Source: Gemmatimonadota bacterium (lineage in GTDB: Bacteria > JBHIER01 > G020348925). Taken from it: a stretch of 64,000 nt of DNA. Location: assembly GCA_020348925.1 (NCBI GenBank), contig CP070758.1:3797688-3861687 (forward strand). Reading direction: 5' to 3'. The notes below the pieces were generated by a model. That model ran no database searches, was not told the DNA's origin, and saw nothing but the letters and a program-made list of their open reading frames with translations. Shown one piece after another: positions 8,946-64,000 of this stretch. Position numbers and translations under genes: made by a program. Position 1 is the first letter of the stretch. Each line of letters begins with the position of its first letter.

Positions 8946-9159
8946 TGCCTCATAAGACACATCGTATGGGCGATGAATCCTTTTGCCCTCTCAGGGAATC
9001 CAATGGGTGCGATAGACAAAACTTCCGGAATGTTCCAAACCTGCCGGAAGGTCATCCCTCGACTCGCAGCGTTAAAGAATGCCGGGAAATACCGAGGACA
9101 ATGAATTTCCCGGTCCCATCATTTTGGACATAAACCATGGTCACAAAGGAGAGGATGTT

Positions 9160-10599
9160 ATGGCTCTCGAAAAAACCTTATCGCGGAGAAATTTTTTACG
9201 CTCGTCCGCTTCCGCAATGGGCCTTGTTTATCTCTCTGTCGTTGAACCGGAAATGTATGATCACACTCCTGGGGTACACGCTGTTGATTATCCAGGGCGT
9301 TTGTGTTACAATGAAAACCCTCTGGGCCCGTCACCGCAGGCACGGGCGGCGATGAGTAAAGCGGTTGCAATGGCACATCGTTATCCTGACTGGTTTTGCT
9401 CAAATCTGGAAAGCCGCATCGCAGCTCATCATGGTCTTCAACAAAACAACATCTGTGTGGGCGCTGGCGCGACGGAAGTCATTCGCCTCATAGCGGATGC
9501 CTTTTTAGGGCCTGGCGATGAGATGATTACGGCCACCCCCACGTATTCCCAGATGGGTTACGATGCGACATCGAACGGCGCCAGCGTTGTTGAAATACCG
9601 GTCGATGAGAATTATGACATTGATCTCCAGGGTATTTTTGAGGCTATTGGGTCCAACACCAGGATGATATCCCTGGTGAATCCCAATAATCCTCTGGCAA
9701 GAGTTATCAATAAAACCGATATGGAGGCGTTCATCAGAGAGGTTCCCACAGGTATCGTGGTCGTGGTGGATGAAGCCTATCATCATTACGTTCACTCCCC
9801 CGATTACGAAAGTTGCATCCGTTTCGTGGACGAAGGACTGCCCGTTGTTGTGGTGAGAACGTTTTCCAAAGCCTTCGGACTGGCCGGAGCCCGCATCGGA
9901 TATGCTGTGGCTTCCTCCGAATATACCCCTCTCATCGCTTCGACGCAATTGTTCGGAACGGTGAGCAACCTTGGCCAGGCCGCAGCCGAAGCGGCCCTGA
10001 ATGACATGAATCATGTGAACAATACCGTAGCGATCAACGACGAGGTGAAGGGCTTTCTTGAAACCGAGTTCACCCATTTGGGTTTGGATTTCATTCCCTC
10101 GGAAACAAATTTCATGATGATTGACGTTGGCACAGACGCCGAGACGGTGGTCTCCCAGCTTGCTTCCCGGGGTTTTCTGGTTCGCTCCGGCTGGGGAATG
10201 CGGCACCATATCCGAGTTTCAACCGGATTGATGCATGAGGCGGTGAGCTTCGTGGGAGCCTTAAAAGACGTCCTGGATCTCGGGTTCCATTACGGTCTCA
10301 AAGGGAGTGGTGAAAGTCCGAAAACCTTCGGCTTGAATTCTGTCTATCCCAACCCGTTCAACTCACAATGTAAAATCAAAATTACGGCCCATCGGGATGA
10401 GAACGTGTCACTGACAATTTATGACACACTGGGGCGCAAGGTGCGATCGCTGGTCCATCATCCGCTCCGAGCCGGAGTACATTATATTCCCTGGGATGGG
10501 AAAAACGCTCACGGAAACAGTGTTGCCTCGGGAGTGTACATCATCAGTCTTATACAAGGCGAATGTGCCGAAAGTTCCAGAGTTACATTGATTCGATAA
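9160..10599 (+). CDS. HisC-like class I/II PLP aminotransferase with Tat signal and C-terminal T9SS type-A/FlgD-Ig tail
   Basis: SRRNFL twin-arginine motif; NENPLGPS, YPD, NPNNP, VDEAY, RTFSKAFGLAGARIGY (PLP lysine); tail YPNPFN...IYDTLGRKVRSL...WDGKN..G.SVASGVY. RBS AGGAGAGG before ATG 9160. Confidence 0.88.
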   Translation: MALEKTLSRRNFLRSSASAMGLVYLSVVEPEMYDHTPGVHAVDYPGRLCYNENPLGPSPQARAAMSKAVAMAHRYPDWFCSNLESRIAAHHGLQQNNICVGAGATEVIRLIADAFLGPGDEMITATPTYSQMGYDATSNGASVVEIPVDENYDIDLQGIFEAIGSNTRMISLVNPNNPLARVINKTDMEAFIREVPTGIVVVVDEAYHHYVHSPDYESCIRFVDEGLPVVVVRTFSKAFGLAGARIGYAVASSEYTPLIASTQLFGTVSNLGQAAAEAALNDMNHVNNTVAINDEVKGFLETEFTHLGLDFIPSETNFMMIDVGTDAETVVSQLASRGFLVRSGWGMRHHIRVSTGLMHEAVSFVGALKDVLDLGFHYGLKGSGESPKTFGLNSVYPNPFNSQCKIKITAHRDENVSLTIYDTLGRKVRSLVHHPLRAGVHYIPWDGKNAHGNSVASGVYIISLIQGECAESSRVTLIR

Positions 10600-13954: not shown

Positions 13955-14051
13955 ATACATTTCTGCGCGGCAGGTATTATGAGACATGGCGCTCTAAGGC
14001 TCTGTGGCTAATGGCTCAACAATATCCGAATACGAAGAGACAATGTACCCC

Positions 14052-15377
14052 ATGAAACACGTGAATAAAGGCGATCGTTTAACCATCTCCACCCGCAGAG
14101 AATTTCTCAGGCAAGTGGTGACGGTTGGGGCTTGGTCTTTCTTTGGCGTGAAGGGGATTCCCAAAATTGTGGGAGCCAACCCGCTGGTGTATCCTCCCCG
14201 TGCTCGAATACCGAATCCATACGTTTCTGACGAAGGGAAGCCGCTCCTTGTCACGGTTCTTGGGACTGATATTCGACAGATGCTGAGGGCTGGATTCGAG
14301 CGACTGGGTGGTCTTCACAAACTGATCAATGACAACCAGGACGTTCTCATCAAACCGAATCTCAATGGGGTCGATATCTATCCAGCTATTTCCAGTGCGG
14401 AGGCCATTGCAGCACTGGCTCAAGAAGTGGCGGAACGTACGACGGGAACCGTGAGGGTTGGGGACACGGGATTTCATTCGAGAGATGATGTGTACGCCCA
14501 TATCGATCTCGAGGGCGCACTCACAGGAACAGGAGCCGAGGCAGCCTATTTTACTGACACCTATAATGTCCGGAGGTCGTCGTGGAGCGATTCCAAACCG
14601 GACTATTTGGTGTACACCGATGTCTACGACGCACCGATCATAGTCAACTTTGCCTGCATGAAACGCCATTATCTGGCTCACATGAGTATGGCTCTGAAAA
14701 ATAATGTGGGAGCTGTGGCCGGCTCGGACGCGACGGAATCACGAGCATATCTTCATGGGCTCAGTGGCAATTCCTTTTTGGAGGAGGTCGCCGAAGTAGC
14801 CGGCCTTATTAATCCGGAATTGACCGTTGTCGACGCGCGGAGCGTCCTGGTCGGCAACGGTCCTTTTTCCGATATGCCTGACGCTCAGATCCTCCACGGC
14901 TTGAATTTTCTGATCATAAGTGGCGATATGATGGCTGTTGATCTTTACTGTTCCGTTCTTCTCCAAGGATATGATCGCGATTTTTCGTCGTCCCAAATCA
15001 TGCCCACCCTGAATCGGGCTCATGAATTGGGCTTAGGAGTGAGAGAATTGAGCGACGTCGAATTTGCGGAGACATACACGTGTGTCGAGAATCTTGAGGA
15101 CGGAACCATGCCTCTTCAGTTCGAACTGCATCAAAATCATCCCAATCCCTTTAATAGCTCAACACAAATTTGTTTCAGAATCCATGACAAAAATTCCGTT
15201 GCTCTTTACATCTATGATGCTCTGGGAAGAAAAATCTCAACGGTAATGAACCGCGAAATGGCCCCTGGTCAGTATTCGGTGGAATTTCACGGGAACAGCG
15301 TGCCGAGCGGCCTCTATTTTTATCAATTGAGAGTTGGGCCGCATCTCCTGACGAAAAAGATGACGCTGCTCAGATAA
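14052..15377 (+). CDS. DUF362-family protein with Tat signal and C-terminal T9SS type-A-like tail
   Basis: TRREFL; VLIKPN, KRH..A.MS.ALKN.VG, P.LTVVDA, GNGP, SGD..AVD; tail F.LHQNHPNPFN...IYDALGRKI...SGLYFYQL......KKMTLLR. Start could be 14043. Confidence 0.85.
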   Translation: MKHVNKGDRLTISTRREFLRQVVTVGAWSFFGVKGIPKIVGANPLVYPPRARIPNPYVSDEGKPLLVTVLGTDIRQMLRAGFERLGGLHKLINDNQDVLIKPNLNGVDIYPAISSAEAIAALAQEVAERTTGTVRVGDTGFHSRDDVYAHIDLEGALTGTGAEAAYFTDTYNVRRSSWSDSKPDYLVYTDVYDAPIIVNFACMKRHYLAHMSMALKNNVGAVAGSDATESRAYLHGLSGNSFLEEVAEVAGLINPELTVVDARSVLVGNGPFSDMPDAQILHGLNFLIISGDMMAVDLYCSVLLQGYDRDFSSSQIMPTLNRAHELGLGVRELSDVEFAETYTCVENLEDGTMPLQFELHQNHPNPFNSSTQICFRIHDKNSVALYIYDALGRKISTVMNREMAPGQYSVEFHGNSVPSGLYFYQLRVGPHLLTKKMTLLR

Positions 15378-15536: not shown

Positions 15537-16895
15537 ATGTGTCGCCGTGAAGAGAAAAGTCAAAGCAGACAGACACATCCGCGAAGAACGTTTCTGAAAA
15601 AAATAGCCTCACTGGGGATGCTGTCTCTGTTGGGGAGAGATATACTTCCCAGACGAGCGAACGCAGGTGTGACGGCCTTTCCGCCGCGAAAAAGAATTCC
15701 GAATCCGTACGTTTCCAGTGAGGGCAAGCCGATTCTGGTGTGTGTCTCGGGTACGGATTTCGGAGAGATGTTGCGGACAGGACTGGAGCGGATCGGCGGA
15801 CTTGAAAAACTGATCGACAGCAATCAGGATGTCCTCATCAAACCGAATCTGAACGCCTCGGATGTGTACCCCGCCATTTCCAGCGCGGAGTCCATTGCTG
15901 CCTTAGCTCGGGAAATTGGAGGCGTAACGAGTGGGAGTGTCAAGGTGGGCGATGTCGGGTTTCATTCGGCCAGTCGGGTTTACAATCACATCAATTTGGA
16001 GAAGACATTGAGCGGTACGGGAGCCGAGGCCGTCTATTTCTCAGAGACGTACGATGTTCGCCGAGCCCCATTTATCAAAACATTAGCCAGTAAATCGTTA
16101 TGGAATCCTTCGAAACCGAATATTTCGGTCTATTCCGATGCGTATGATGCCCCGATCATCATCAGTCTCACCTCCATCAAACGCCATTTTCTGGCCCACA
16201 TGAGCACGGCGCTCAAGAACAATGTGGGCGCTGTGGCCGGATCGGGCGCGAGTAGGTCACGGGAGTACCTTCACAGTCTCCGCGATAAGTCTTTTTTAAG
16301 AGAAGTTGCGGAAATTGCTCGGGTTATCCAACCGGAGTTGACTGTGGTCGATGCTCGAAGCGTACTCATCGGCAACGGTCCGTTTTCCGACTATCCTGGG
16401 GCGGAAATTCTCGACGGCATTCATCTGCTCATCATGAGCGGTGATATGATTGCTGTTGATCTCTATTGTTCCCTTCTTCTTCAAGGCTATGACGATACGT
16501 TTTCATCGTGGCAGATCAACTATACGGTCCAACATGCACATGCCCTGGGTGTCGGCGTGGGGAGTTTGGACGAAGTTGAGATTATTGAACCTGTCGCGTC
16601 AGTTGAAAGTTCACCTGGTTCATCCGTGCCGGGCGGGTTTGAATTGTATCAGAATTATCCCAATCCCTTTAACGCTTCAACTCACATCGGATTCCGTATT
16701 GAGGAAAAGAGGAATATCACGCTGCACGTTTATGATTCACTGGGACGAAGAGTTTCGACTCTTGTGAAAAGGGAGATGTCGCCTGGTGAGTATTCATTCA
16801 CATTTGACGGGAACGGATTACCGAGCGGCACCTATTTTTATCAACTCAAAGTGGGTCGAAGTCTTGTAACGAAGAAGATGATGTTGCTGAAGTGA
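15537..16895 (+). CDS. Second DUF362-family protein with Tat signal and C-terminal tail (paralog)
   Basis: PRRTFL; same DUF362 motifs; tail FELYQNYPNPFN...VYDSLGRRV...SGTYFYQL......KKMMLLK. Confidence 0.87.
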   Translation: MCRREEKSQSRQTHPRRTFLKKIASLGMLSLLGRDILPRRANAGVTAFPPRKRIPNPYVSSEGKPILVCVSGTDFGEMLRTGLERIGGLEKLIDSNQDVLIKPNLNASDVYPAISSAESIAALAREIGGVTSGSVKVGDVGFHSASRVYNHINLEKTLSGTGAEAVYFSETYDVRRAPFIKTLASKSLWNPSKPNISVYSDAYDAPIIISLTSIKRHFLAHMSTALKNNVGAVAGSGASRSREYLHSLRDKSFLREVAEIARVIQPELTVVDARSVLIGNGPFSDYPGAEILDGIHLLIMSGDMIAVDLYCSLLLQGYDDTFSSWQINYTVQHAHALGVGVGSLDEVEIIEPVASVESSPGSSVPGGFELYQNYPNPFNASTHIGFRIEEKRNITLHVYDSLGRRVSTLVKREMSPGEYSFTFDGNGLPSGTYFYQLKVGRSLVTKKMMLLK

Positions 16896-48504: not shown

Positions 48505-49617
48505 GTGTCTTTTGAAAAGGATTTTTTGGTGAATTTTCGAAAAATTGTCAAACCGGCGAAGAAGGGAATTGCGAATATCTTAGCCAGACGTCCGGTCAAT
48601 TCGAGCACTGAAATCAGATTAACCCGACTCTGCACCCAGCGATGTCGTCAATGCAACATTTACAATAAGAGCACCGAACCGCCGACTGTCAATCCGGACG
48701 ATTTTGCCCTCATGGCGAGGCGGCTGAGAGATTACGGGGCATACGTCGGCTTTATCAGCGGTGGCGAACCGACTCTCGTACCGCATCTGAATGAAATGTT
48801 GCACGAGGCGGTAAAGACGTTTCCGGTGGCGGTGACTCTGAACACAGGCTTGTACAATACGACGAAAACGATCGAGCACATCGCCGAATACGTTCTGAGG
48901 CATAACATCAATATTCAGACTTCCCTGGATGGCCTGAATGATGTGGGGGACGATCTTCGTGGTGTTCCTGAATTCTCACGGACTGTACTCAAGCATATGG
49001 AAGTCATCTCAGAGATGCGGAGAGACTTACGATCACACTCCCTTCTCTATGTAAACATCGTCCTCAACAACCTCAATATGGATCAAATCCCAGAGATGAT
49101 TCACCATATTGCTGCGAAGGGATGGGATGTGACTGTCGGTCTCTACCATACAGTGACCTCATCCACAAAAAATGATGAGGCACTCAGACCTGTCCTCGGA
49201 CAGGATCTTGACCGGCTCATAGCATACTTGATCGACCATCCCCGTATCCTGACGCTGAAACCCTTTCTCCAGGGAATCAAGGTGTTTCTCGATGGAAACG
49301 GGTTCAAAAAACACTGCCCGTTTTTGACCTCCCCCCTTCTCGCCACCCGCCTCACAATCATGGAAACCGGAGATGTTCATCTGTGCCGGGGGGAACCTAT
49401 TGGAAATATTTTGAAGCATGAATTACGAGAGATCTTCTCCGATCGTGCCTACACTCAGCGTTTATCGGAGTACAGGAGATGTTCTGGATGCTGGACAAGT
49501 TGTTACATTCAACGATCCCTGCTCCTGCACCCCCGCACTCCAAAAGAATTTCTGTCAAATATGAAGAAAGTACTTCGTGCACGACGAGCTGTGCGCTTGA
49601 AGCCGGAGGTCCAATGA
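48505..49617 (+). CDS. Radical SAM protein with SPASM/twitch-type C-terminus
   Basis: CTQRCRQC, ISGGEP, SLDG, GDVHLC....IGN, C.GCW.SC. Confidence 0.88.
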   Translation: MSFEKDFLVNFRKIVKPAKKGIANILARRPVNSSTEIRLTRLCTQRCRQCNIYNKSTEPPTVNPDDFALMARRLRDYGAYVGFISGGEPTLVPHLNEMLHEAVKTFPVAVTLNTGLYNTTKTIEHIAEYVLRHNINIQTSLDGLNDVGDDLRGVPEFSRTVLKHMEVISEMRRDLRSHSLLYVNIVLNNLNMDQIPEMIHHIAAKGWDVTVGLYHTVTSSTKNDEALRPVLGQDLDRLIAYLIDHPRILTLKPFLQGIKVFLDGNGFKKHCPFLTSPLLATRLTIMETGDVHLCRGEPIGNILKHELREIFSDRAYTQRLSEYRRCSGCWTSCYIQRSLLLHPRTPKEFLSNMKKVLRARRAVRLKPEVQ

Positions 49618-50654
49618 TTCGGTCAGCCATGACCATCCTTCGAAGACACGCGACCACCAAAAAGGCAGTGAACGTCCTCATTGTGCTGGTCTCGTATCTT
49701 CTTTCGAAACTGATCCGGCGACCGATTGCGTGGGGCCATCCCTTTATGCTTATGGTCGAACCTACGAATATGTGTAACCTCAAATGTCCCCTCTGTCCTA
49801 CCGGCTCCGATAGTCTCACACGGCCCAAAGGAAAAATGTCTTACGAACATTTTGTACATCTCATCGACGAAGTTCACGAACATCTCTTGCTCCTCAGTCT
49901 CTGGAACGTGGGCGAGCCTTTCCTGAACGAGAGTTTTATCAAAATGATTCGATTCGCAAAGAGAAAAAACATATACGTCATCACGAGTACCAATGGTCAT
50001 TTTTTAGGTACAAGAGAAAAGGTGCGAGATCTTATCCTATCGGGCTTGGACGAATTGATCGTCTCCATGGACGGTGCAAGTTCGGAAACGTACAATCGTT
50101 TTAGACAGAATGGACAGTTTCAGACAGTCGTCGATGGGCTCCGAGGAGTGACGGACGAAAAGAATATTCTCAAGAGCGCAAGTCCCCGAATCGATCTTCA
50201 ATTTATTGTCATGCGACACAATGAACATGAGGTCAAGGCGATGGAAGATTTAGCCCGAGAGCTGAAGGTCGACAAATTGACCCTCAAAACAGTTCAGGTT
50301 ACAAACGTGGAGGAGGCCGAGGAATTTCTCCCCACCCAACAGGAATTCAGACGGTACCTTTTTCATGGAGACACCTTCCGTATGAGGGGGAAACTGAAGA
50401 ACAATTGTCGTTGGCTGTGGTTCTGTCCCGTCGTCAACTGGAACGGAACAGTCGTTCCCTGCTGCTTCGACAAAGACAACGAGTTCACTTTTGGAAACGT
50501 TTTCGAAGAATCATCTTTAGAGAATATTTGGCAGAATGAGCAGTACAGCGCTTTTCGAAGAAACATATTGAGCGACAGAAAAGCCTATGCACTGTGCACA
50601 AATTGTTCTGAAGGTATAAAGAGCCTGTATATAAAAAAGGAACGGCTTACTTAG
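49614..50654 (+). CDS. Radical SAM/SPASM protein
   Basis: EPTN.CNLKCPLC, GEPFL, STNG, SMDG, C..LW...VVNWNG.VVPCC.D, C.NC; ATGA overlap. Confidence 0.92.
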   Translation: MIRSAMTILRRHATTKKAVNVLIVLVSYLLSKLIRRPIAWGHPFMLMVEPTNMCNLKCPLCPTGSDSLTRPKGKMSYEHFVHLIDEVHEHLLLLSLWNVGEPFLNESFIKMIRFAKRKNIYVITSTNGHFLGTREKVRDLILSGLDELIVSMDGASSETYNRFRQNGQFQTVVDGLRGVTDEKNILKSASPRIDLQFIVMRHNEHEVKAMEDLARELKVDKLTLKTVQVTNVEEAEEFLPTQQEFRRYLFHGDTFRMRGKLKNNCRWLWFCPVVNWNGTVVPCCFDKDNEFTFGNVFEESSLENIWQNEQYSAFRRNILSDRKAYALCTNCSEGIKSLYIKKERLT

Positions 50655-50665
50655 GGAAACACGAA

Positions 50666-51595
50666 ATGACTCTGCGTTGGAGAAAATATCTCGTTGTCGC
50701 GAAGATCATACTCACGTTCCTCATTCTGGGGATCGTGCTTCTTCAGGTTGACATACATCGAATTGGATCGGCTTTTCAATCCCTTCGAGTTTCATTTTTT
50801 ATTCTGGCTCTCCTATTCGTTCCAGTCAATCTCATTTTTCAGCTGATCCGATGGCATTATATTCTTAAGACAGTGGCCATCGCTGTGACACCCCGACACG
50901 CGTTCAAGTCGATTCTGGCAGGATTGGCCTTCAGTCTTGTGACCCCAGGACGGGTTGGCGAAGTCGGACGATCACTCTATTTTCAATCTTCGACCACGAT
51001 CAAAACTGCTGGCCTCGTTATCTTAGAAAAGGCTTATGCATTCATAGTCATACTGATCGTCTCAGGCATCAGCATCATGCTTTGGCAAAGAACACTTATA
51101 GGAGCTCTTATAATTGTCAGTGCACTTTTTATCGGATTTCAGTTGAAACTCATCCGTTCCCTTCTCTCCCGGCTCTCTTTTCTGTTCCCGTACGGCGAAA
51201 AAATCGCAGAGTTGTGGTCGTCCTGGGACAGCTTTGAACGAAAGCACATCGCACTTCTGCTGGCGATCTCAATGGGATTCTTTGTCATTGTATTTCTCCA
51301 GTTCTTCATTCTTGTATCATCCTTTCAGACGGTGTCCCCGGCGTCAGCACTGATCGCCATTCCTCTGACGATGGCCATCAATTCTTTTCCCATCACAATT
51401 GCCGGGTTGGGTCTGCGAGAAGGCGCTGCGGTTTTTTTCTTTTCCAAGTTCGGAGTGGCCGAAGCCGCAGCTTTAAACGGAGCGTTCCTTCTCTTCGTTA
51501 TCGATATTCTCATTCCAGGACTTGTCGGCCTGCCTCTCATATCGAAAATGAGATTGCACTTCGAACACGCCGCTGAGGAGAAACCGTTCCCATGA
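50666..51595 (+). CDS. Lysylphosphatidylglycerol-synthase TM / flippase-like protein (UPF0104)
   Basis: RW..IL, TPGRVGE..R, PITIAGLGLREG, multiple TMs. Confidence 0.88.
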   Translation: MTLRWRKYLVVAKIILTFLILGIVLLQVDIHRIGSAFQSLRVSFFILALLFVPVNLIFQLIRWHYILKTVAIAVTPRHAFKSILAGLAFSLVTPGRVGEVGRSLYFQSSTTIKTAGLVILEKAYAFIVILIVSGISIMLWQRTLIGALIIVSALFIGFQLKLIRSLLSRLSFLFPYGEKIAELWSSWDSFERKHIALLLAISMGFFVIVFLQFFILVSSFQTVSPASALIAIPLTMAINSFPITIAGLGLREGAAVFFFSKFGVAEAAALNGAFLLFVIDILIPGLVGLPLISKMRLHFEHAAEEKPFP

Positions 51596-52383
51596 GATAT
51601 CCTATTCTTCTGCAACTCAGATTCTGGTGCATTATTCATTGTACCCTCTTCGCATTCTCCGCTCCGTCCGTCTTGAGCTCCGGTGAAACGCAACGCCAAG
51701 AAACCTATGTGTACAGCTTTCAATACTTGGGCCTGACAGTGGCAGAAGGTACCATCACCATCTCCGATACTCTCATGGATGACGGCACAAGTGGAAAATA
51801 TATGAAGACCCGTGCCACCTCCCTGACGGCAGCATCCGTTCTCTTTCGAATCGATAACAAATACAGCACTCTTATTGATACAGCAACCTGTCTTCCGCTT
51901 CTCTACACAAAAAATATCGAGCAGACGAATTTGAGTCAGGGCTGTCATTTTCAATTCGACCAAAAGAACCTCTGCATACTCAGCGCTGAGGGGGAAAAAA
52001 TTTCCCTGGCTGCTCCGACTCACAACTTCTTCTCCGCCCTCTATTACATGATGAACCATACTTTTCAACCCAAAGAGATTCTGCGTCTCCCAGTCTATGC
52101 CGCCGGGAATATTTGGGAAGTCAGAGCGGAGGCACTCAAAACAGAGATGATCGCAACATCGATTGGTACCTATCGAACCGTACAGGTTGAAATCGAATTT
52201 CACCGTCATTCCAATTTCCAAGAGCAGACAAGAAAAACAGACGTCCTCACGAACCGTCTCCTGCAGGAGGATGTCAAAACGTATCTCTGGTTTTCGGCAA
52301 CCGAAAATGGTGTGGTCGTCAAGGCCGAATATGAACTGTTTCCCGCAGGACTGCGCATGATGTTAGCCGGATACATGAAATAG
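51592..52383 (+). CDS. DUF3108-like exported protein
   Basis: Signal peptide; Y...YLG..V..G.I, F.I...Y.T.ID, ..W.S pattern. Confidence 0.65.
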   Translation: MRYPILLQLRFWCIIHCTLFAFSAPSVLSSGETQRQETYVYSFQYLGLTVAEGTITISDTLMDDGTSGKYMKTRATSLTAASVLFRIDNKYSTLIDTATCLPLLYTKNIEQTNLSQGCHFQFDQKNLCILSAEGEKISLAAPTHNFFSALYYMMNHTFQPKEILRLPVYAAGNIWEVRAEALKTEMIATSIGTYRTVQVEIEFHRHSNFQEQTRKTDVLTNRLLQEDVKTYLWFSATENGVVVKAEYELFPAGLRMMLAGYMK

Positions 52384-57198: not shown

Positions 57199-57271
57199 TG
57201 TATAGATTGTATTGGAATCGAAGGAAAGAATATTACAATTCACTTTTTCGTTATTCTTCGCCGCTATACCT

Positions 57272-57826
57272 TCAATTTCCTCCATGTTCCTCCAATGTTT
57301 TTCGAAGAATGTGGAGAAGAGCCCTGTCTCGATCACACTCAAGGTGTTCCCTCATATTGATGAGGGTCGGCAGGTCAAAAAATTTTGTGAGTTCCGTCTC
57401 CGAGATTCACTTTCTCCGTTTTTTTCGACAACGCACCATACCCCTGACCACCCAACGTACTTCCCCCCAAATTCAAAGGCCCGTATTTCGTCATCAAAAG
57501 GCTATATCCTGTATTGCCAGGAAGGGAGTTTGTCGGCGAGATATCTGGTTTATCGCGGGACACCATCACCAGCTCCTGGAGTACCTTTCCTAATCCTACC
57601 AGATTGTGGCCTCTCTCGAATAGACCAGATCAAGATCGAAAATGGATCGGACATCACGCAATCTCAGAATGGACCGGACAGTTCGCTGCAAAACCAAGAG
57701 TCGCTGCCTGGGGCTCTGAGAAAGTATCCACCGGATCGGGGTGACATCAACACCATCGTCAGCGGACGATTTCTCATGCTCCCCTGTTGAACCGATCTTC
57801 GATCCTGTTTTATGGAGCTCACTCAT
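57272..57826 (-). pseudogene. Relic of a small-protein plus nucleotidyltransferase gene pair
   Basis: Across three frames: DGVDVT.IRW.LS.SP..RL..LQ fused to FDLDLVYSR; then NL..L..VLQEL...LLMTKYGPL.L; then DLPTLI....E....DRA.L.ILR.TLEE*. Confidence 0.6.
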
Positions 57827-58049
57827 GTCGATTCCTTTATTGCCCCATCTCTCCCAGACCAGCTAAAGGTTTGGGTTTCACATGCCTGAATTTTGCGGTA
57901 TCACCTCACTGTATTAGGGGTCTCGATTGTGTGATGCGACACAAAAGAGAGAAACACCGACAGTCTTTCGGTTGATGCACAAACCATAGTTATTATTCGT
58001 TCAAAATCTTCAGTTGGTTTCGGGGTCCCTGAGATACAGGGAATACTTT

Positions 58050-58214
58050 TTACAACTGAGAGATGTTCAGACCCTTCTGAATGAAAAGGCTCCGCTCACA
58101 GTGCGCACACGACAGGGCTCCCCTATTCACGGCATCATCACCGTCCTTGTCGCGCAGAATAAGTTCACCATGACACTGAGGACAACACGGCAATGGCACT
58201 GTTGAGCATTTCAT
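58050..58214 (-). pseudogene. Trm112-like zinc-finger mini-ORF (54 aa), probably truncated
   Basis: MKCSTVPLPCCPQCHGELIL...GALSCAHCERSLFIQKG; below the ORF-track cutoff. Confidence 0.45.
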
Positions 58215-58297
58215 CTCAATCACATACTCAGTTACAAGTCAAAAGGGGAAATATCCAAATTGCGGGTTTCTCTCTGTCCACGTGCAGTTCTTTGCTG

Positions 58298-58906
58298 TTA
58301 CTCCATTGAGCAAAACTCACACCTTCGTTCTTGTCGATACATATCCAAACCACTACTCTTTCCCCTTACCCGCAATACGAAAAAAAGAACGAGAGCAGAT
58401 GCAAAGAGAAAAAAGGCGATGATGGCAGCAATGGCAAGGTAGTATCGGTTTCTAACAGAAGTGTCCGTTAGTTTCCAGCGCCTGATTGTATAGCGAAAAA
58501 GCATGATGGAAAGAAAAAGAAAAATGCTTTGGATAAAGAAGAAGGTGTATTGAGAAAAAAGAATACCGGCCGCAGCCCATGCATCGGGGAACTGTTTTGT
58601 AGAAGCACGATAGATATTCAGAACAAGAAAACCGGGGACTAAAATGAGGGCTATGGTTGAATTGGCTATGAGGAGCTTGAATTCGTTGCGATCGCCAAAG
58701 ATGAAAAAAAACGTCAACATAAAACCCAGAACAACAAGTGGGAACAAAGGCTCGCTGTGATGTGATTTGGGATAAGACGGAGAATATCCGGCCCAGAGGC
58801 TGTACAAACCCCAAAAGAAAAGCCACAGGAGCAGCTCGTATGCAACCGACTTGGTAGCATATCTGTCAATTAATGATCCACGACTTTTCGAAGGAATGGA
58901 ATTCAC
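58298..58906 (-). CDS. AT-rich multi-TM hypothetical protein
   Basis: About five hydrophobic segments; purine-rich RBS before the GTG. Confidence 0.65.
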   Translation of the reverse strand: MNSIPSKSRGSLIDRYATKSVAYELLLWLFFWGLYSLWAGYSPSYPKSHHSEPLFPLVVLGFMLTFFFIFGDRNEFKLLIANSTIALILVPGFLVLNIYRASTKQFPDAWAAAGILFSQYTFFFIQSIFLFLSIMLFRYTIRRWKLTDTSVRNRYYLAIAAIIAFFLFASALVLFFVLRVRGKSSGLDMYRQERRCEFCSME

Positions 58907-59080: not shown

Positions 59081-59884
59081 TTATTCCAGCGGTTCGACAA
59101 ACGCGCTTTCCGGTTGGCGTGTCACAGGAAAATCGACGGGAAACACTTCGAGTTTTACCTTCTCTCCCATGTGTGTGTTAATCACGAAGAAACGTTTGTC
59201 GATGTAATCTTTCTTGCATTCACACATAGCCCTTAAAATAAGGCTCACGTTCTGCGGATCGTCGTCGGACATGCCAAAGCGGTGTTCTGGATCGGATCCG
59301 AATTTTTCCAGCGCCTTGTCGACGGATTTCTTGATCGCGACTCTCTTCAATGCCGGTGTGGTCTTTATCAGGCCGGGATCGTCGAGTTGTTCGCGGCGCA
59401 CCTCATCGTTTCCTACGGGTAAAAGGGTGAGGTAATTCGGCTCTCGCGGGATCAGGCCTTTTTCGACGAGTACGCGCAAACCGACCTTCAGGGTCCCGGG
59501 ACTGTGGCCCCGGGCAGTAATAATCGAGACGGGCCGCTGTTTTTTGCAGGCGTAAACGAACAGATCCCAGGAGGGCGCTTGCCAGTTCCGCTCATTCGAT
59601 TCAATCGCCTTTTCAATGTCCTCCACAAAGTATTGTTTCTGACCGGGTTGTAGTTCGTCTGCCGGAATATCACCGAAGTTACGGTAACTCCCGTCGAACA
59701 TGGCATAGTTCTCCCACTTGCCCGGCTGTCCCAGGAGAGGATGAATAGTGGCAAATTCACCGGTGCTGAACGGCTCGGGTTTCTCCGTTTCCGTGTTCAG
59801 GATGAATATGGGTGTGGTCAAGAACATGATGTTGTCATCAAAATCAAAGAAATAGAAGCTAACATCGTCAAATTGAATGGCCAT
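59081..59884 (-). CDS. HAD-superfamily phosphatase-like protein
   Basis: Motif I FFDFDDN, motif II IITARG, lysine in ALKR, motif IV GMSDDD; AGGAG before ATG 59884. Confidence 0.7.
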   Translation of the reverse strand: MAIQFDDVSFYFFDFDDNIMFLTTPIFILNTETEKPEPFSTGEFATIHPLLGQPGKWENYAMFDGSYRNFGDIPADELQPGQKQYFVEDIEKAIESNERNWQAPSWDLFVYACKKQRPVSIITARGHSPGTLKVGLRVLVEKGLIPREPNYLTLLPVGNDEVRREQLDDPGLIKTTPALKRVAIKKSVDKALEKFGSDPEHRFGMSDDDPQNVSLILRAMCECKKDYIDKRFFVINTHMGEKVKLEVFPVDFPVTRQPESAFVEPLE

Positions 59885-60002
59885 TTCTTCGTACTCCTGT
59901 TTTGTCGGGTTCAACAGTGCGAGCGCAAGCCTCTTCCCCGCACCGACTCCGTTCAGCGGAACAGCCAGGAACAGTGAGTGTCAGAGAGAAATCTTCCGTC
60001 GC

Positions 60003-61868
60003 CTAACTGAACAACAGCCTTTCAGAGAGCTCCTGTGTCCCATCGGTGTAGTAGGGTTTCGTCCATGAATCATCAGGGTATAAATATGCTGCCTTTTCCG
60101 CTTCCTCGTCGGACAGCTTGTTCAACTCATTTCGCGACTTGAAGTGGTTAAACAGCCGCATGAATTCCCCGAGAAATATGTCGGCGACGCGTTTGTTGCC
60201 CCGAATGATGAGCATGTTCTCGTCGTTGTTGACTGTGGAGGCCTCACTGAAGTTCGCAGAACCGGTAATCACCACAGGATCGTCCGAGAGCGGATCTATC
60301 AGCATGTACTTGGTGTGCAGATAATTGACATGGTCGTTCAATCCCGTCAGCGTTTCGATGAATTGTTTGTGCTTATCTTTACCGCCTGCCCGTTTCTTCA
60401 AGGTATCGCCCCACGCTATCCGGTTTTGCGTGCACTTGGCCATGAGGGGGTACTTCGGCCGCATGAGGCCCGTGATACCTTCCAGCAAAAGATAGCGCAG
60501 GTATGGTCCTCCGCCGCTGACCGGCTTCTTCCTTTTCACCTTTTTGAAGATTTCATCAGCGACGGAAAAGGCTGCGGTGAAGAAGACGGAATTCTCCGCA
60601 GCATCCAGTCGGTCGGCGTACCAGTCGAGCATGGCCTTGGTCAGCCGCGGGCTGAATACCGGAGTCATGGAATTTGGCGGCGGAGGTCCCTGGAGATCCG
60701 ACTGCTGCAGGATCGTCCAGTTCCGAAGACCCTTATCGGGAGGATCGGATTTCGCCGACTTCTTCTTGGGATCGGTGGAAAGTTTAGCCCAATACTCGAA
60801 GTACTTTTGCGCCACGGCTTCGTCCCGTACGACATGTCCCACGTTGGACTGGCCGAAGATTCCGCCGGCCGTGAAATTCGTGGAGCCGGTCCAGACCTGT
60901 ATGGGCTTGCCGTTCTTCAGCAGCACAATGAACTTGTTGTGCGAGATCTGTGTGATTGTCCGTGGTATCATCATTTCCTTGAATGCGGACAGATATTTGG
61001 CATTGGAAATCCCGATCTGGCTCACGGCCTGTTTGGCCGCCTCACAGACACTATCTCCGGACACCTCTTTGATCACTTCTCTGCTCGTGTACGTTGCCGG
61101 TTCCTGTCCACCCTTCGTATAGTTCACAGTGGTGTCAGCATCGTAGTTCCGCTTAAGCCGATACGTACTCTGTCGTTTGGCGTGGTGCACAATTTTGACG
61201 TCAGCTCCCCTCTCCAGGGCATTGACGAAAGCCTGAATGACTGGGGGATAGGTGAACTCATACACCGCGGCGCGTATCGAATATTCAGGACCTTTGGCCT
61301 GGGCAATGAAACGCAGCATGGCTTCTTCAAGCCCTCGCGACAGCCACTTGTAAGCCTCGCGCTGTGGCACATCTTCCGGCTTGAGGAATTCGGTAAATCT
61401 CATCTCATCCGGATCTTCCACCTGAGCCTCATCCTTGTACCATCTGCGGTACTTGCCGAACCGGCGGCTGTAGGCCTGACTGCCGGCGACGCCGCGGTTG
61501 AAGTAGACGGCGTGCGTCTTATCCTCCGGGTCTTCAGTAGTAATCGTTACGTCAACCGGTTTTCCCTTTTCAGGTGCTGCGGGACTACCGTACACAGGGA
61601 CCACGCGGTAGGTATAGGTTTTCTTCGGATCCACGACATAATCACTCCACTGAAAAGCTTGAATAACCGGCACTTTGCTTGTGATTCCTTCAAAATCGCG
61701 ATCGCCACGCAACGGTTGAAACTTACCTGTTTTTCCTTTGCGCTTGGAAATGGTAAATCCCAGCAGACCCTTGGCCGCTTGCTTCTCTGCGTTCAGTCCA
61801 AGCAGTACGACCTCCGTACCGGCAATCGCATGGACTGAAATGCCTGTTTTCTTGTTGCGTTTGCGCAT
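60003..61868 (-). CDS. Phospholipase D-family protein with two HxK motifs
   Basis: SHNKFIVL...VWTGSTNF and LHTKYMLID...ITGSANFS...NDEN; Fn3-like N-terminus (YTYRVVP); no signal peptide seen. Confidence 0.9.
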   Translation of the reverse strand: MRKRNKKTGISVHAIAGTEVVLLGLNAEKQAAKGLLGFTISKRKGKTGKFQPLRGDRDFEGITSKVPVIQAFQWSDYVVDPKKTYTYRVVPVYGSPAAPEKGKPVDVTITTEDPEDKTHAVYFNRGVAGSQAYSRRFGKYRRWYKDEAQVEDPDEMRFTEFLKPEDVPQREAYKWLSRGLEEAMLRFIAQAKGPEYSIRAAVYEFTYPPVIQAFVNALERGADVKIVHHAKRQSTYRLKRNYDADTTVNYTKGGQEPATYTSREVIKEVSGDSVCEAAKQAVSQIGISNAKYLSAFKEMMIPRTITQISHNKFIVLLKNGKPIQVWTGSTNFTAGGIFGQSNVGHVVRDEAVAQKYFEYWAKLSTDPKKKSAKSDPPDKGLRNWTILQQSDLQGPPPPNSMTPVFSPRLTKAMLDWYADRLDAAENSVFFTAAFSVADEIFKKVKRKKPVSGGGPYLRYLLLEGITGLMRPKYPLMAKCTQNRIAWGDTLKKRAGGKDKHKQFIETLTGLNDHVNYLHTKYMLIDPLSDDPVVITGSANFSEASTVNNDENMLIIRGNKRVADIFLGEFMRLFNHFKSRNELNKLSDEEAEKAAYLYPDDSWTKPYYTDGTQELSERLLFS

Positions 61869-61969
61869 GACCTGATTCTCCTTTCTTTCTCTTGACAGAA
61901 GTAAACGATGTGTGTGCTCAGTGCCACTATTTCCTACTCCGCCAAAATCGTTTCCCTCTTACGACGGCG

Positions 61970-64000
61970 TCAGCAGTCCAATTTCTTTTGGCGACCGCTC
62001 TCGTCATCGACTCCCCGGCGGACCAATCCTCGCCATGCCGTCTGCACCTCAGCGGTGACGTGCTCTGGGTCTCCGGCCGCCTCGAAGACAGGACGGCGCT
62101 TGTGCTGCTCCTGGTGATGCGGAAACATGGCGACGAAAAACTCGCTCCAGCCTCCCATGCGCATCCGCACCAGATCGTAGCGCTCCGGAAAGCGCTGCGC
62201 CTCCTCCAACGTGCTGGGGTCCGCGCAACTAATCGACATCATGTTCGGGCCGATCTTCCCCTCCGCGAACTGCCGGATCAGTTCCTTGAGTTGTTCAAGG
62301 GGAAAGTTCTCCCGGATGTTGATATCGACCGGAGAACCGCACGACAGGCCCACGCCTATGGGATCAGTATGCGCGGGATCGTCGTATGCTGTTTTACCCT
62401 CTGCCCAGGAGTGCAGGGATTTTATCGCCACTCGGCCGCGCGCGGGCACGGGGAGATCGAGCGGCGTCGAGGAGGGGCTGAAATCCGACGCCACCGTCTG
62501 GCCGTTCCGCCGCCCGTCCGCGGACGCTCCCAGGAAGGAGCCCACACCGGCGTAATCCTCGAAGGTTGCAATGCCCGGGGTGATCACGAACTCAAAAGGG
62601 CACTCGTCCGTGCCATAGCGGCCGCGCAGGATCTCCAGCTTTTCGGAAATCGGGTTCTTCGGATTGCGGATCAAGTCGTACGCCATGTCTACCAAATCTC
62701 TCACCACCTTACGCGCGAAGCGGTCCACCTCCTCATGTCCCTGACCGAACTTGGACAGTCCCAGGGCATAATTGCGCAAATGTTTGAAGCGCTCGGCCTG
62801 CACGGCAATCCGACCCTCACCGATCGTGCTGCTATAGAACGGTTCTTTCATGTCATAGCCCCAGTTGCAAATGAGGCAATTTACCAGCTCTGGCAAGGTG
62901 AATACCGCCTCGTTGCTGAAGACCATGTGCCGGATGGCCCACAGCGAGTCGATCGCGGTTGCGATACCACTCATCAACGGCGAAAGCAGTTTATAACGAG
63001 CGCCGCCGGCTGTCAAGTCCCGGCTCCGTTCCAAGCAATCGTCGATCAGCGCTGAGAGTAACGGACTCGGACATACCTTGCTTAGATTGCCATAGCGCGA
63101 AAGCATGCCGTTGTAAAAATCGATCAGCTTGTAACGATAATGCTCGAGGAAAAGCTCGTAGAACGCTTCCCAACTATCGATTTCTTCCGCCGGTTTCGAG
63201 TGGAAAGACGCCTTGAGACCCGTGATGTGGATGGGTCCCGCTGCGGCGTACGTGCGACCTCGGTTGAGGGCCATCTCGATGGCATCTGGAACCGGCACAA
63301 AGGAGAAAGCAAACTCGTTCTTGCCGGCCATGATGGTCTCGAAACATCCATCGCAAACCATGTCGCGGGCATCCGCGAGATCTACAACGGTTCCGGTCTC
63401 GATGATCCCCTCACCACTTCGCAACAGCCCCGCAATGATCTTGTCGTCGTTAATGAGGAAGGGGTGTCCTCCACCGGAAAGGACGCAACGAGCAGCTTCC
63501 TCCAAGACGTCGTCCGGCGTATCGGGGTGAACTCTGAGCGACAGACAAGGCGCGTTCAATGGCAGACGCCGAGCTGCACGGAGGCACATGCGGGTGACCG
63601 CGTTGCACCCGTCCTCCGGGGTCTCGGCGTCGTTTGCCTTGCAGCCCCCTACGGTGATCTGCTGCACCCATTGGTTGAGGGCAGCACCCTGGGGGAAGTC
63701 ACCACCCTCATACGTAATGGCTACGGAGCCGCGGGATAGCCTGTCGTTGAAATGCCGGTGATTCAACAGAACCTGTTCGTCCATCTTGATCCAGAAACAG
63801 TCGATGATTTCCTGGGCCTCGTCCGGTGTGATCCTATCGGCCTCGTAGAAGGGCGCGAGAAGCTGATCCAGTCGACCAATCGACACGGACTCTCCTGCGA
63901 TGTGCATGCAGCAATGCATACTGAATACGAGCTGAGCAGCTTCCACAAAGGTCGTCGGGGATTCGTTCGCGAGCTTCTCCATCCGCTGGGCAATCGACTT
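61970..64000 (-). CDS. Glycyl-radical enzyme (PFL-like family), 5' end outside the window
   Basis: S.GRLDQ, A.E.IDCFWIK, ITVGG, P.LSLRV, G.P...ND, GCFE Cys loop, GA.Y, KFG, ASADGR, L.EAQ..PE.Y.L..RMGGWS; frame open to position 64000. Confidence 0.9.
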   Translation of the reverse strand, partial: KSIAQRMEKLANESPTTFVEAAQLVFSMHCCMHIAGESVSIGRLDQLLAPFYEADRITPDEAQEIIDCFWIKMDEQVLLNHRHFNDRLSRGSVAITYEGGDFPQGAALNQWVQQITVGGCKANDAETPEDGCNAVTRMCLRAARRLPLNAPCLSLRVHPDTPDDVLEEAARCVLSGGGHPFLINDDKIIAGLLRSGEGIIETGTVVDLADARDMVCDGCFETIMAGKNEFAFSFVPVPDAIEMALNRGRTYAAAGPIHITGLKASFHSKPAEEIDSWEAFYELFLEHYRYKLIDFYNGMLSRYGNLSKVCPSPLLSALIDDCLERSRDLTAGGARYKLLSPLMSGIATAIDSLWAIRHMVFSNEAVFTLPELVNCLICNWGYDMKEPFYSSTIGEGRIAVQAERFKHLRNYALGLSKFGQGHEEVDRFARKVVRDLVDMAYDLIRNPKNPISEKLEILRGRYGTDECPFEFVITPGIATFEDYAGVGSFLGASADGRRNGQTVASDFSPSSTPLDLPVPARGRVAIKSLHSWAEGKTAYDDPAHTDPIGVGLSCGSPVDINIRENFPLEQLKELIRQFAEGKIGPNMMSISCADPSTLEEAQRFPERYDLVRMRMGGWSEFFVAMFPHHQEQHKRRPVFEAAGDPEHVTAEVQTAWRGLVRRGVDDESGRQKKLDC

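Follow-up and report, generated by a model that had tools for sequence, protein, structure and literature searches.

Glycyl-radical enzymes (GREs) are, to our knowledge, regarded as strictly anaerobic and as dependent on a radical S-adenosylmethionine (radical-SAM) activase. Proteins that join a DyP-type heme peroxidase to a pyruvate formate-lyase (PFL)-like domain form subclass P2 of the DyP-type peroxidases; they have been noted in bacteria and fungi and are called unexplored or of elusive significance in the available text of two papers (PMC9719856, PMC5041501). That of PMC9719856 proposes that the fusion protects from H2O2, and that of PMC5041501 describes a fungus in which the DyP-PFL fusion ("DyP B-PFL") is accompanied by a separate putative PFL activase. 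No report linking DyP-PFL proteins to a phospholipase D (PLD) or a phosphatase was found in the literature searched, subscription journals lying outside the search. Here we describe such a linkage at one end of a 64,000-nucleotide stretch of contig CP070758.1 from a Gemmatimonadota bacterium (the window), where the minus strand of positions 59081-64000 encodes the C-terminal part of a DyP-GRE fusion protein, a PLD-family protein and a small protein, HAD1, that is probably a HAD-fold phosphatase.

The three genes are co-oriented and closely spaced. The GRE gene (61970-64000, minus strand) is an open reading frame (ORF) of 676 aa that is open at its 5′ end and truncated by the window edge; it is followed by the PLD gene (60003-61868, minus strand; 621 aa) and the HAD1 gene (59081-59884, minus strand; 267 aa from ATG 59884). 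An alternative TTG start for HAD1 lies at 59914; ATG 59884 is preceded by an AGGAG ribosome-binding site and coincides with the point where homologues begin. The intergenic gaps are 101 bp between GRE and PLD and 88 bp between PLD and HAD1, or 118 bp with ATG 59884, in agreement with an earlier sequence-only reading that had placed three co-oriented genes about 100 to 120 bp apart. Its assignment of the first two proteins to the PFL-like GREs and the PLD family is borne out by Pfam, in which the GRE fragment matches PFL-like (PF02901) at 1.6e-90 and the PLD matches PLDc_2 at 1.1e-21 in two stretches; the NCBIfam results are consistent with this.

A protein of 1291 aa in the protein collection, P0394, matches the fragment in the window with 100% identity and carries an N-terminal Dyp_perox_C domain (PF20628) followed by PFL-like (PF02901) and YjjI-like (Pfam) domains. 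Given the lengths of the two chains, the window holds residues ~616-1291, and the whole DyP domain lies beyond base 64000. The missing GRE N-terminus, which had been expected upstream together with a radical-SAM activase, is thus a DyP heme-peroxidase domain. This architecture is common among relatives: most of the best full-length GRE matches in a representative search are 1179-1322 aa long, and 17 of 19 other long GRE relatives scanned have a DyP domain. Additional domains, namely C2, C-type lectin or DUF2278, were seen in some DyP-PFL fusions (P0265, P0259 and P0272), and the C2 and C-type lectin additions hint at members from eukaryotes that have gained targeting domains.

The GRE domain itself has the expected catalytic landmarks. 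Its profile matched 31 GRE sequences in the PDB at E <=0.001, the best of them GRE eliminases (9rco, 5.9e-41; glycerol dehydratase 1r8w, 1.4e-35; also CutC). The Cys loop D-G-C-F-E (63338-63352, minus strand), with the putative thiyl-radical Cys and general-base Glu, aligns to the GCVE of 9rco/1r8w; its D, G, C and E are invariant in 11/11 PLD-linked GREs, and the pattern [DN]GCxE is present in 119/120 long GRE relatives. A variant of the glycyl-radical motif, R-M-G-G-W, lies at 62147-62161 (minus strand), where RMGGWS aligns to RVAGYS of 9rco/1r8w. R-x-G-G-W is likewise invariant in the 11 PLD-linked GREs, and GGW occurs in at least 119/120 long relatives, the remaining protein having a C-terminal extension outside the pattern. 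The stretch of glycerol dehydratase that holds the residue we take to be Asp447 is deleted in the aligned window GRE. Against NCBIfam, full-length P0394 scored 226.4 bits for the PFL2/glycerol-dehydratase model TIGR01774 (cut-off, 678.2), 148.5 for CutC (1050), 140.9 for HypD (1100) and 175.9 for HpfG (1000), so far below the cut-offs that it is not a member of any named GRE family.

Homologues of the three genes recur together in other genomes, even fused to one another, as the sequence-only reading's proposal of a joint module implied. In a scan anchored on the PLD (30-sequence alignment, one genome per species), we compared the best 80 of 176 stretches encoding a relative, with flanks of up to 10 kb; the source genome of the window is absent from these 80 loci, and the best PLD match is 74% identical. 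By tblastn, 10/80 loci have a GRE homologue at most 10 kb away from the PLD, and 6/80 have HAD1. The 10 GRE loci span Bacteroidota, Pseudomonadota and Chloroflexota, to which the host of the window adds a further lineage, for at least four phyla in all. A HAD domain of either the first or a second type (HAD1 or HAD2) is present in nine of the ten, and the tenth, L063, has a UshA-like metallophosphoesterase whose NCBIfam matches are to UshA-like, 5′/3′-nucleotidase and SoxB models only, all under cut-off. The partner for the radical enzyme is a DyP in eight of the GRE loci and a radical-SAM activase in two.

Gene order varies among these loci. The window and L010 (Chloroflexota) have a DyP-GRE fusion, PLD and HAD1, and L008 (Saprospiraceae) has GRE, DyP, PLD and HAD1 as separate genes. 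A cytidine deaminase joins the set in L015 and L019 (Hellea; Caulobacterales), in the order GRE, DyP, cytidine deaminase, HAD1, PLD, and in L080 (Blastomonas), in the order PLD, GRE, DyP, cytidine deaminase, HAD1. L014 and L048 (Aureisphaera; Psychroserpens) encode GRE, a DyP-HAD2 fusion with an Acid_phosphat_B-like HAD2, and PLD, while L063 (Paraflavitalea) encodes PLD, GRE, DyP and the metallophosphoesterase. In the two Bacteroidales loci, L066 and L070, a GRE activase is followed by a GRE of greater distance (27-29% identical) and by a fused PLD-HAD2. A further locus, L024, has a DyP fragment and a HAD2 at its edge, separated from the PLD by 9 kb.

Four kinds of domain fusion tie these parts together. 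DyP-GRE fusions comprise the window protein, L010 and the GRE clade to which the window protein belongs (clade A, below), and DyP-GRE-HAD1 fusions were found in 3/120 long GRE relatives (P0406, P0407 and P0412), the HAD1 part of P0407 being recognized by hhalign with a probability of 99.9% (E 2.9e-32). The other two kinds are the DyP-HAD2 fusions of L014 and L048, whose C-termini match the type-2 HAD of L066, and the PLD-HAD2 fusions of L066 and L070. For close relatives, we used an identical size of the longest contig as a proxy for the same genome among the top-120 PLD or HAD1 matches. The proxy was positive for 18/40 clade-A GREs (>=67% identical to that of the window), with PLD in 10, HAD1 in 13 and both in 5, and for 0/79 clade-B GREs. 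PLD and HAD1 matches share 17 sizes. Offset controls averaged <=0.49, and <=0.16 for the clade-A comparison. In one genome, the three genes carry the nearly consecutive locus tags DBP02_17735 (GRE), DBP02_17740 (PLD) and DBP02_17750 (HAD1).

Phylogenetic analysis of the GRE domain (58 rows; root not established) placed 40/42 DyP-linked rows into one clade with an SH-aLRT support of 100. Within it, a group with separate DyPs (8 rows) is sister to a group of fused proteins (32 rows), and the window protein falls into fused clade A, also with an SH-aLRT of 100. The activase-linked GREs of Bacteroidales are located elsewhere on the tree, together with GREs of 810-850 aa and the DyP-PFL fusions P0311 and P0318, in which, judging from this position, the fusion apparently arose independently. 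Explaining the distribution of the GRE context over the PLD tree takes ~9 changes across 11 rows; the L048 row among them (wrong ORF, branch length 10) is to be ignored.

The composition of the block also sets it apart. Relative to 40 background genes of the window (mean GC, 0.485; standard deviation, 0.027), the block 59081-64000 has a GC content of 0.550, and its tetranucleotide distance (0.272) ranks 1/60 among sliding windows, the best non-overlapping one reaching 0.170. The GC content is graded from the GRE gene (0.586; z 3.7, top of 52 ORFs) through the PLD gene (0.532; z 1.7) to the HAD1 gene (0.505; z 0.7), the last being within the background range. The GC-richer block described earlier therefore stands overall, as the most deviant part of the window, but not for the HAD1 gene alone, and the composition of the block departs from the host background. 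The AT-rich border that had been noted next to it is recovered in the 58-59 kb bin (GC, 0.441), although this is merely the third lowest of 64 bins. No tRNA genes or Rfam matches were found at the block borders, and promoter-like and terminator-like sites show no excess there.

Searching the 64-kb window by tblastn with the activase of L066 retrieved no GRE activase (best E 1.3); its sole radical-SAM ORF is of the SPASM type, ~9 kb from the module. This SPASM protein belongs to a group at 49479-52383 with two GT2 glycosyltransferases, LPG_synthase_TM and DUF3108, and is unrelated to GRE activases. With the same query, an activase homologue was detected in 2/80 loci, namely, L066 and L070 of Bacteroidales, which score 192 bits against the 174-bit cut-off of TIGR02494. 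Hellea, Blastomonas, Aureisphaera and Psychroserpens, which host the module, are aerobes. The label of an "anaerobic module" given by the sequence-only reading thus finds no support in a GRE that is fused to a DyP, has an activase homologue in only 2/80 loci and occurs in aerobic genera. The DyP domain of P0394 aligns to DypB-type structures at E 1e-14 to 3e-15, and its score for TIGR01413 (DyP) is 57.4, under the cut-off of 100.5. The proximal heme-ligand His is His257 of P0394 and is conserved in 24/24 aligned DyP rows.

The PLD is a two-lobed protein with both HKD motifs. An N-terminal beta-sandwich (61524-61868, minus strand; residues ~1-115) precedes the lobes, and the same arrangement of beta-sandwich and two lobes is seen in the AlphaFold2 model (pLDDT 89.3). 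Motif 1, HNK...GSTN (60876-60941, minus strand), lacks an Asp at the usual +7 position; its residues H310, N311, K312, G328, S329, T330 and N331 are invariant in 30/30 homologues. Motif 2, HTKYMLID...GSAN (60252-60317, minus strand), is complete, and H518, K520, D525, G536, S537, A538 and N539 are invariant in the same 30. Foldseek ranked PLD 7e0m (3.6e-13), the PLD3/PLD4 5′ exonucleases and vaccinia F13 at the top, and the sequence profile reaches the nuclease Nuc (1byr, 1.3e-7) and MitoPLD. PADLOC returned weak, generic similarity to DrmC (4.1e-10), ZacB and DpdK. No signal peptide or membrane anchor is apparent by eye. A complex prediction for PLD and HAD1 scored 0.01 and 0.00 and counts neither way.

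HAD1 belongs to a family without annotation. We detected 1941 homologues, which are "hypothetical" where named and none of which has a precomputed Pfam domain. D24, D26, N28, T133, K190 and D217-D219, corresponding to HAD motifs I-IV, are invariant in 33/33; motif I, D-F-D-D-N, with the nucleophile Asp and the Asp at +2, lies at 59831-59845 (minus strand), and motif IV, D-D-D, at 59258-59266 (minus strand). The AlphaFold2 model (pLDDT 89.3) runs strand-DxD, helical turn, hairpin, strand-T, helix-K, strand-DDD, with a squiggle/flap (strand 19-23, helical turn 25-29, hairpin 36-49) on a Rossmann-like core. Look-alikes in the ESM Atlas are phage clusters of DUF2608, Acid_phosphat_B and HAD_SAK_1 (0.89-0.91; TM 0.56-0.57) and are at the level of leads. 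By hhalign, HAD1 is close to the type-2 HAD of L066 only at E 4e-4 with a probability of 35%, and no relation was found between the HAD1 profile and the 250-aa protein of type B operons, a 175-aa protein of type A operons (both types described below) or the C-terminus of the L048 DyP. HAD1 is therefore a probable HAD-fold phosphatase on the strength of its motifs and modeled topology; of the earlier "HAD phosphatase" label, this part stood, while family matches are missing, with 0 in Pfam, NCBIfam and PADLOC.

Two other operon types were encountered around the PLD family. The type A operon, present in 31-32/80 loci of several phyla, combines PLD with a ~180-aa protein, a GMC oxidoreductase, a ferritin-like protein (PF12902) and 1-2 SRPBCC proteins (e.g., L003 4841-8076, L005 12480-16281 and L012 11970-16305), and this conserved arrangement is apparently undescribed. 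On the PLD tree, it includes a clade of 19 Flavobacteriaceae rows whose flanks are partly conserved. A contractile-injection-type cluster was considered for these PLD partners and dropped, the partners being GMC oxidoreductase, ferritin-like and SRPBCC proteins. The type B operon, found in 6 loci, encodes PLD, a 250-aa protein, a ~520-535-aa protein whose Atlas look-alikes are 4-HFC-P synthase/class I aldolase-like (0.89, a lead), and a nucleoside-deoxyribosyltransferase-like protein (weak Pfam matches, E 3e-5 to 7e-4). In L002 (9935-21847), type B genes lie beside EAD1, nSTAND1-Endonuclease_NS and EAD1-trypsin proteins. L007 (9775-21622) has the gene families of L002 by clustering, L001 (947-8306) encodes a trypsin-Endonuclease_NS protein, and the PLD homologue P0087 carries the effector-associated domain EAD1 itself. 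A hybrid, L016 (647-6214), consists of GMC oxidoreductase, ferritin-like protein, HAD1 and PLD, from which we read that the HAD1-PLD pair works also with a non-radical redox module. By this reading, a PLD-phosphatase pair may be combined with either of two interchangeable redox modules, DyP-GRE or GMC/ferritin-like proteins.

On the observed domain content, catalytic motifs, fusions, conserved linkage and atypical composition, we propose that the block forms the downstream end of a module that is conserved and horizontally mobile. Its four activities would be carried by a DyP-type heme domain and a PFL2/glycerol-dehydratase-type GRE domain, a two-lobed HKD phosphodiesterase and a HAD-fold phosphomonoesterase. 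The PLD would cut a phosphodiester, the HAD enzyme would then take off the resulting phosphate, and the GRE domain would perform radical, elimination-type chemistry on the freed alcohol. The recurrent phosphatase in the GRE loci fits this logic of diester cut, phosphate removal and radical chemistry. The protein radical may be made or maintained via the fused heme domain and peroxide in place of an adjacent radical-SAM activase, a role for the DyP that the clade-wide obligate fusion, the lack of a linked activase and the aerobic hosts make worth testing. We assign this reading as a whole, including a nucleotide-leaning substrate and a DyP-assisted radical, a probability of about 45%, and it is accordingly tentative.

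As the substrate, we consider a nucleotide-derived compound (nucleic acid or cytidine-nucleotide linked) more likely than a membrane-lipid head group, the co-occurring genes leaning towards nucleotides at least as strongly as towards head groups. This leaning draws on the cytidine deaminases, the nucleotidase-like enzyme of L063, the deoxyribosyltransferase-like protein of type B operons, the PLD3/PLD4 fold of the PLD and the likeness of HAD1 to phage HADs. The cytidine deaminase of L015 is an equivalog match inside the operon (255.6 bits versus 153) with homologues in L019 and L080, and in L048 the second gene downstream of the PLD is dCMP-deaminase-like. Members of the deoxyribosyltransferase superfamily hydrolyse (d)NMPs. 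A bolder proposal, which we regard as quite unlikely, is that the DyP serves as an oxygen-compatible, peroxide-driven generator of the glycyl/thiyl radical and that the module, with the PLD as a nuclease and its nucleotidase partners, performs a radical dehydration similar to that of ribonucleotide reductases (RNRs) on nucleosides released from nucleic acid and thereby destroys them. If true, it would be the first glycyl-radical-type system independent of a radical-SAM activase, and it might act as a peroxide-triggered conflict system or in oxic nucleotide salvage, with the GMC/ferritin-like version as its non-radical counterpart.

Several observations weigh against the proposed module. The scan was anchored on the PLD, so that 10/80 measures how often a PLD has a GRE and not the reverse; the GRE is absent from 70/80 PLD loci, and the PLDs nearest to that of the window (67-74% identical) sit in other contexts. 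The window GRE reaches 17.2 bits for Pfam Gly_radical, under the 22.2 cut-off, and every NCBIfam GRE score of P0394 is far from its threshold. Glycyl radicals are destroyed by O2, which fits poorly with aerobic hosts. In the heme pocket, with the proximal His, the distal Asp of GxxDG and the distal Arg presumably having the roles they have in DypB, clade A replaces the distal Asp with His in 8/8 rows and the distal Arg with Gly, Ala or Ser in 8/8 rows, so that ordinary peroxidase chemistry is not assured for the window protein; among clade-B fusions and separate DyPs, most retain the distal Asp in the alignment and all 16 retain the Arg. Beyond the database silence on HAD1, its model has 0 Foldseek matches in the PDB at E <=0.001, the best being the HAD 2pke (E 0.058; TM 0.29-0.33). 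After its top matches, the PLD model is also similar to PPK1, the phosphatidylserine synthase PssA and classical phospholipases. The cytidine deaminase occurs in 3/10 GRE loci and not in the window. Finally, the function of the module is a prediction from sequence.

The PLD and HAD1 might instead free choline, glycerol, ethanolamine or the like from a lipid or osmolyte head group, on which the GRE would act as CutC or glycerol dehydratase does. The closest solved GRE relatives are indeed the eliminases glycerol dehydratase 1r8w and CutC, the PLD fold matches Streptomyces, plant and human phospholipases, and a PLD-to-CutC choline route has been discussed for gut bacteria. Lipid-related partners occur as well: the GMC oxidoreductases of type A (31/80 loci) have choline dehydrogenases as their best NCBIfam models (95.9 bits versus 605), and SRPBCC lipid-binding-type proteins are found in 27 loci. 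However, the CutC, HypD and HpfG scores of 141-176 bits fall short of cut-offs of 1000-1100, the Asp447 stretch of glycerol dehydratase is deleted, the PLD has neither signal peptide nor membrane anchor by eye, and the 52 window ORFs scanned include no microcompartment/shell or aldehyde-handling genes. A head-group substrate would also leave unexplained the cytidine deaminase, the nucleotidase-like HAD replacement and the deoxyribosyltransferase-like partner, and we consider it unlikely. A conflict or defence set, in which the PLD as a nuclease, the phosphatase, the deaminase and the radical enzyme destroy nucleic acids or nucleotides, with the heme domain as a possible peroxide-sensing trigger, would account for the mobile or defence-type neighbours at 7/10 GRE loci. 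These are transposases and a PD-(D/E)XK nuclease at L008, YLATT and a ResIII helicase at L014, MmeI at L015, AAA_15/21-HNH and an integrase at L019, CHAT and Endonuclease_NS at L048, CHAT-TPR at L070 and AAA_21 at L080. The same set would be in line with EAD1 on P0087, with the L002 operons that abut EAD1, nSTAND1, Endonuclease_NS and trypsin proteins (and L007 alike by clustering), with the resemblance of the L048 deaminase to anti-phage dCTP deaminase (76.7 bits, under the 400 cut-off) and with the scattered GRE linkage on the PLD tree (~9 changes per 11 rows, with the L048 row wrong). It is made doubtful, and to us unlikely, by PADLOC-DB 2.0, which has 0 matches for GRE, DyP, HAD1 and cytidine deaminase and a generic one for the PLD (DrmC, 4.1e-10), by the lack of a sensor or NTPase within the module, by the housekeeping neighbours in the window and by the type A Flavobacteriaceae clade, which looks vertically inherited and metabolic. 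The conflict-system papers of the Aravind group that were searched make no mention of phospholipase D, PLD, HKD, peroxidase, glycyl or pyruvate formate.

The fused protein could also be an ordinary anaerobic GRE served by an unlinked radical-SAM activase, its DyP only guarding against H2O2. Such a protective role is proposed for subclass P2 in the available text of PMC9719856, and a separate activase accompanies the fusion in the fungus described in that of PMC5041501. Classical activation would be compatible with the Gly and Cys motifs, which are sufficiently canonical, and the PLD/HAD-linked GREs of Bacteroidales adjoin a TIGR02494 activase (192 versus 174 bits). Nevertheless, neither the remaining 78 loci nor the 64-kb window yielded an activase homologue, and the extent of the DyP-linked clade (40/58 rows), with the fusion present throughout a 32-row subclade, favors an obligatory partnership over optional protection. 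Some of the host genera are strict aerobes. An ordinary anaerobic enzyme seems rather improbable to us. A chance juxtaposition in a variable region, with no shared function, would explain why 70/80 PLD loci are without a GRE and why the PLD switches partners frequently, and the ~100-bp spacers in the window leave room for separate promoters. It is highly improbable and disfavoured in view of the four kinds of fusion, the recurrence of the parts across phyla in differing gene orders and the same-genome coincidences far over control. Collectively, we retain the mobile DyP-GRE/PLD/HAD module with a nucleotide-derived substrate as the best explanation.

Outside the block, the visible neighbours of the module are housekeeping genes (a MetH-like fusion, UbiE/MenG and a flavodoxin-like protein), and elsewhere the window contains genes for sigma-54 regulators, type IV pili and a number of proteins that end in a C-terminal sorting domain of the type IX secretion system (T9SS), a content that points to a host of the FCB group. 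Two ORFs downstream of the module share its orientation and are conserved in none of the related loci, a 202-aa ORF at 58298-58906 (minus strand), plausibly a multi-pass membrane protein with no family match, and a 57-aa CxxC...CxxC ORF at 58050-58223 (minus strand), which is zinc-ribbon-like. Both lie in the 57.2-59 kb that the sequence-only reading took for AT-rich and decayed DNA. In the same part, the ~0.8 kb at 57212-58000 have no convincing ORF on either strand (a 192-aa frame gives a low-quality translation) and may be non-coding or degraded. Of three proteins (9079-10599, 14004-15377 and 15537-16895), one is aminotransferase-like (class I/II) with FlgD_ig and a T9SS tag, and two are DUF362 proteins with the same tag; a T9SS sorting tag on an aminotransferase fold is unusual. 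The cumulative GC skew peaks at ~25 kb, and at ~25000-25400 gene orientation flips from mostly plus to mostly minus.

A large heme-peroxidase-linked GRE clade in aerobic bacteria and fungi has been noted in print and never explained. The DyP-PFL clade now gains a conserved genomic context, consisting of a PLD and a phosphatase and sometimes a cytidine deaminase, and the question of the purpose and activation of DyP-PFL proteins is narrowed to a short list of substrates. The Bacteroidales version with its classical activase is a natural control. In addition, an unannotated HAD-like family of ~1900 members is defined, and three alternative enzyme sets are seen to centre on the PLD family.

Compared with the published DyP-PFL fusions of subclass P2, P0394 has the same architecture of an N-terminal DyP and a C-terminal PFL-like domain; as far as the available text of the two papers goes, it differs in being part of a module tied to PLD and phosphatase by synteny and fusions, and in the remodelled distal heme pocket of clade A. 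With the GRE 1,2-eliminases (glycerol dehydratase, CutC/CutD, HypD and HpfG/HpsG), it shares the PFL-like barrel, the Cys-x-Glu loop and the C-terminal Gly motif, whereas the window GRE has a fused heme domain, no adjacent activase and RxGGW instead of RVxG[FYW]. Unlike the cut (choline-utilisation) clusters, the module has no CutC-level score, no activase in the window and no shell genes among the 52 ORFs. The PLD has the two HKD motifs and the bilobal fold of PLD nucleases and phospholipases such as Nuc, PLD3/PLD4, Zucchini/MitoPLD, DrmC and Streptomyces PLD, but its family is distinguished by a 621-aa chain, an extra N-terminal beta-sandwich and three alternative operon types. HAD1 shares motifs I-IV and the predicted core topology with the HAD class IIIB acid phosphatases and the phage DUF2608/HAD_SAK_1 proteins and departs from known HADs in its large cap insert and its motif I, DxDxN, the canonical motif ending in Thr or Val. 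A parallel may be drawn to the class I and class III RNRs, in which one radical chemistry is served by different generators in oxic and anoxic organisms, as it might be here by a radical-SAM activase in Bacteroidales and by a DyP elsewhere; the window GRE is of the PFL2 type and not NrdD, and radical generation by the DyP is, in this analogy, a proposal.

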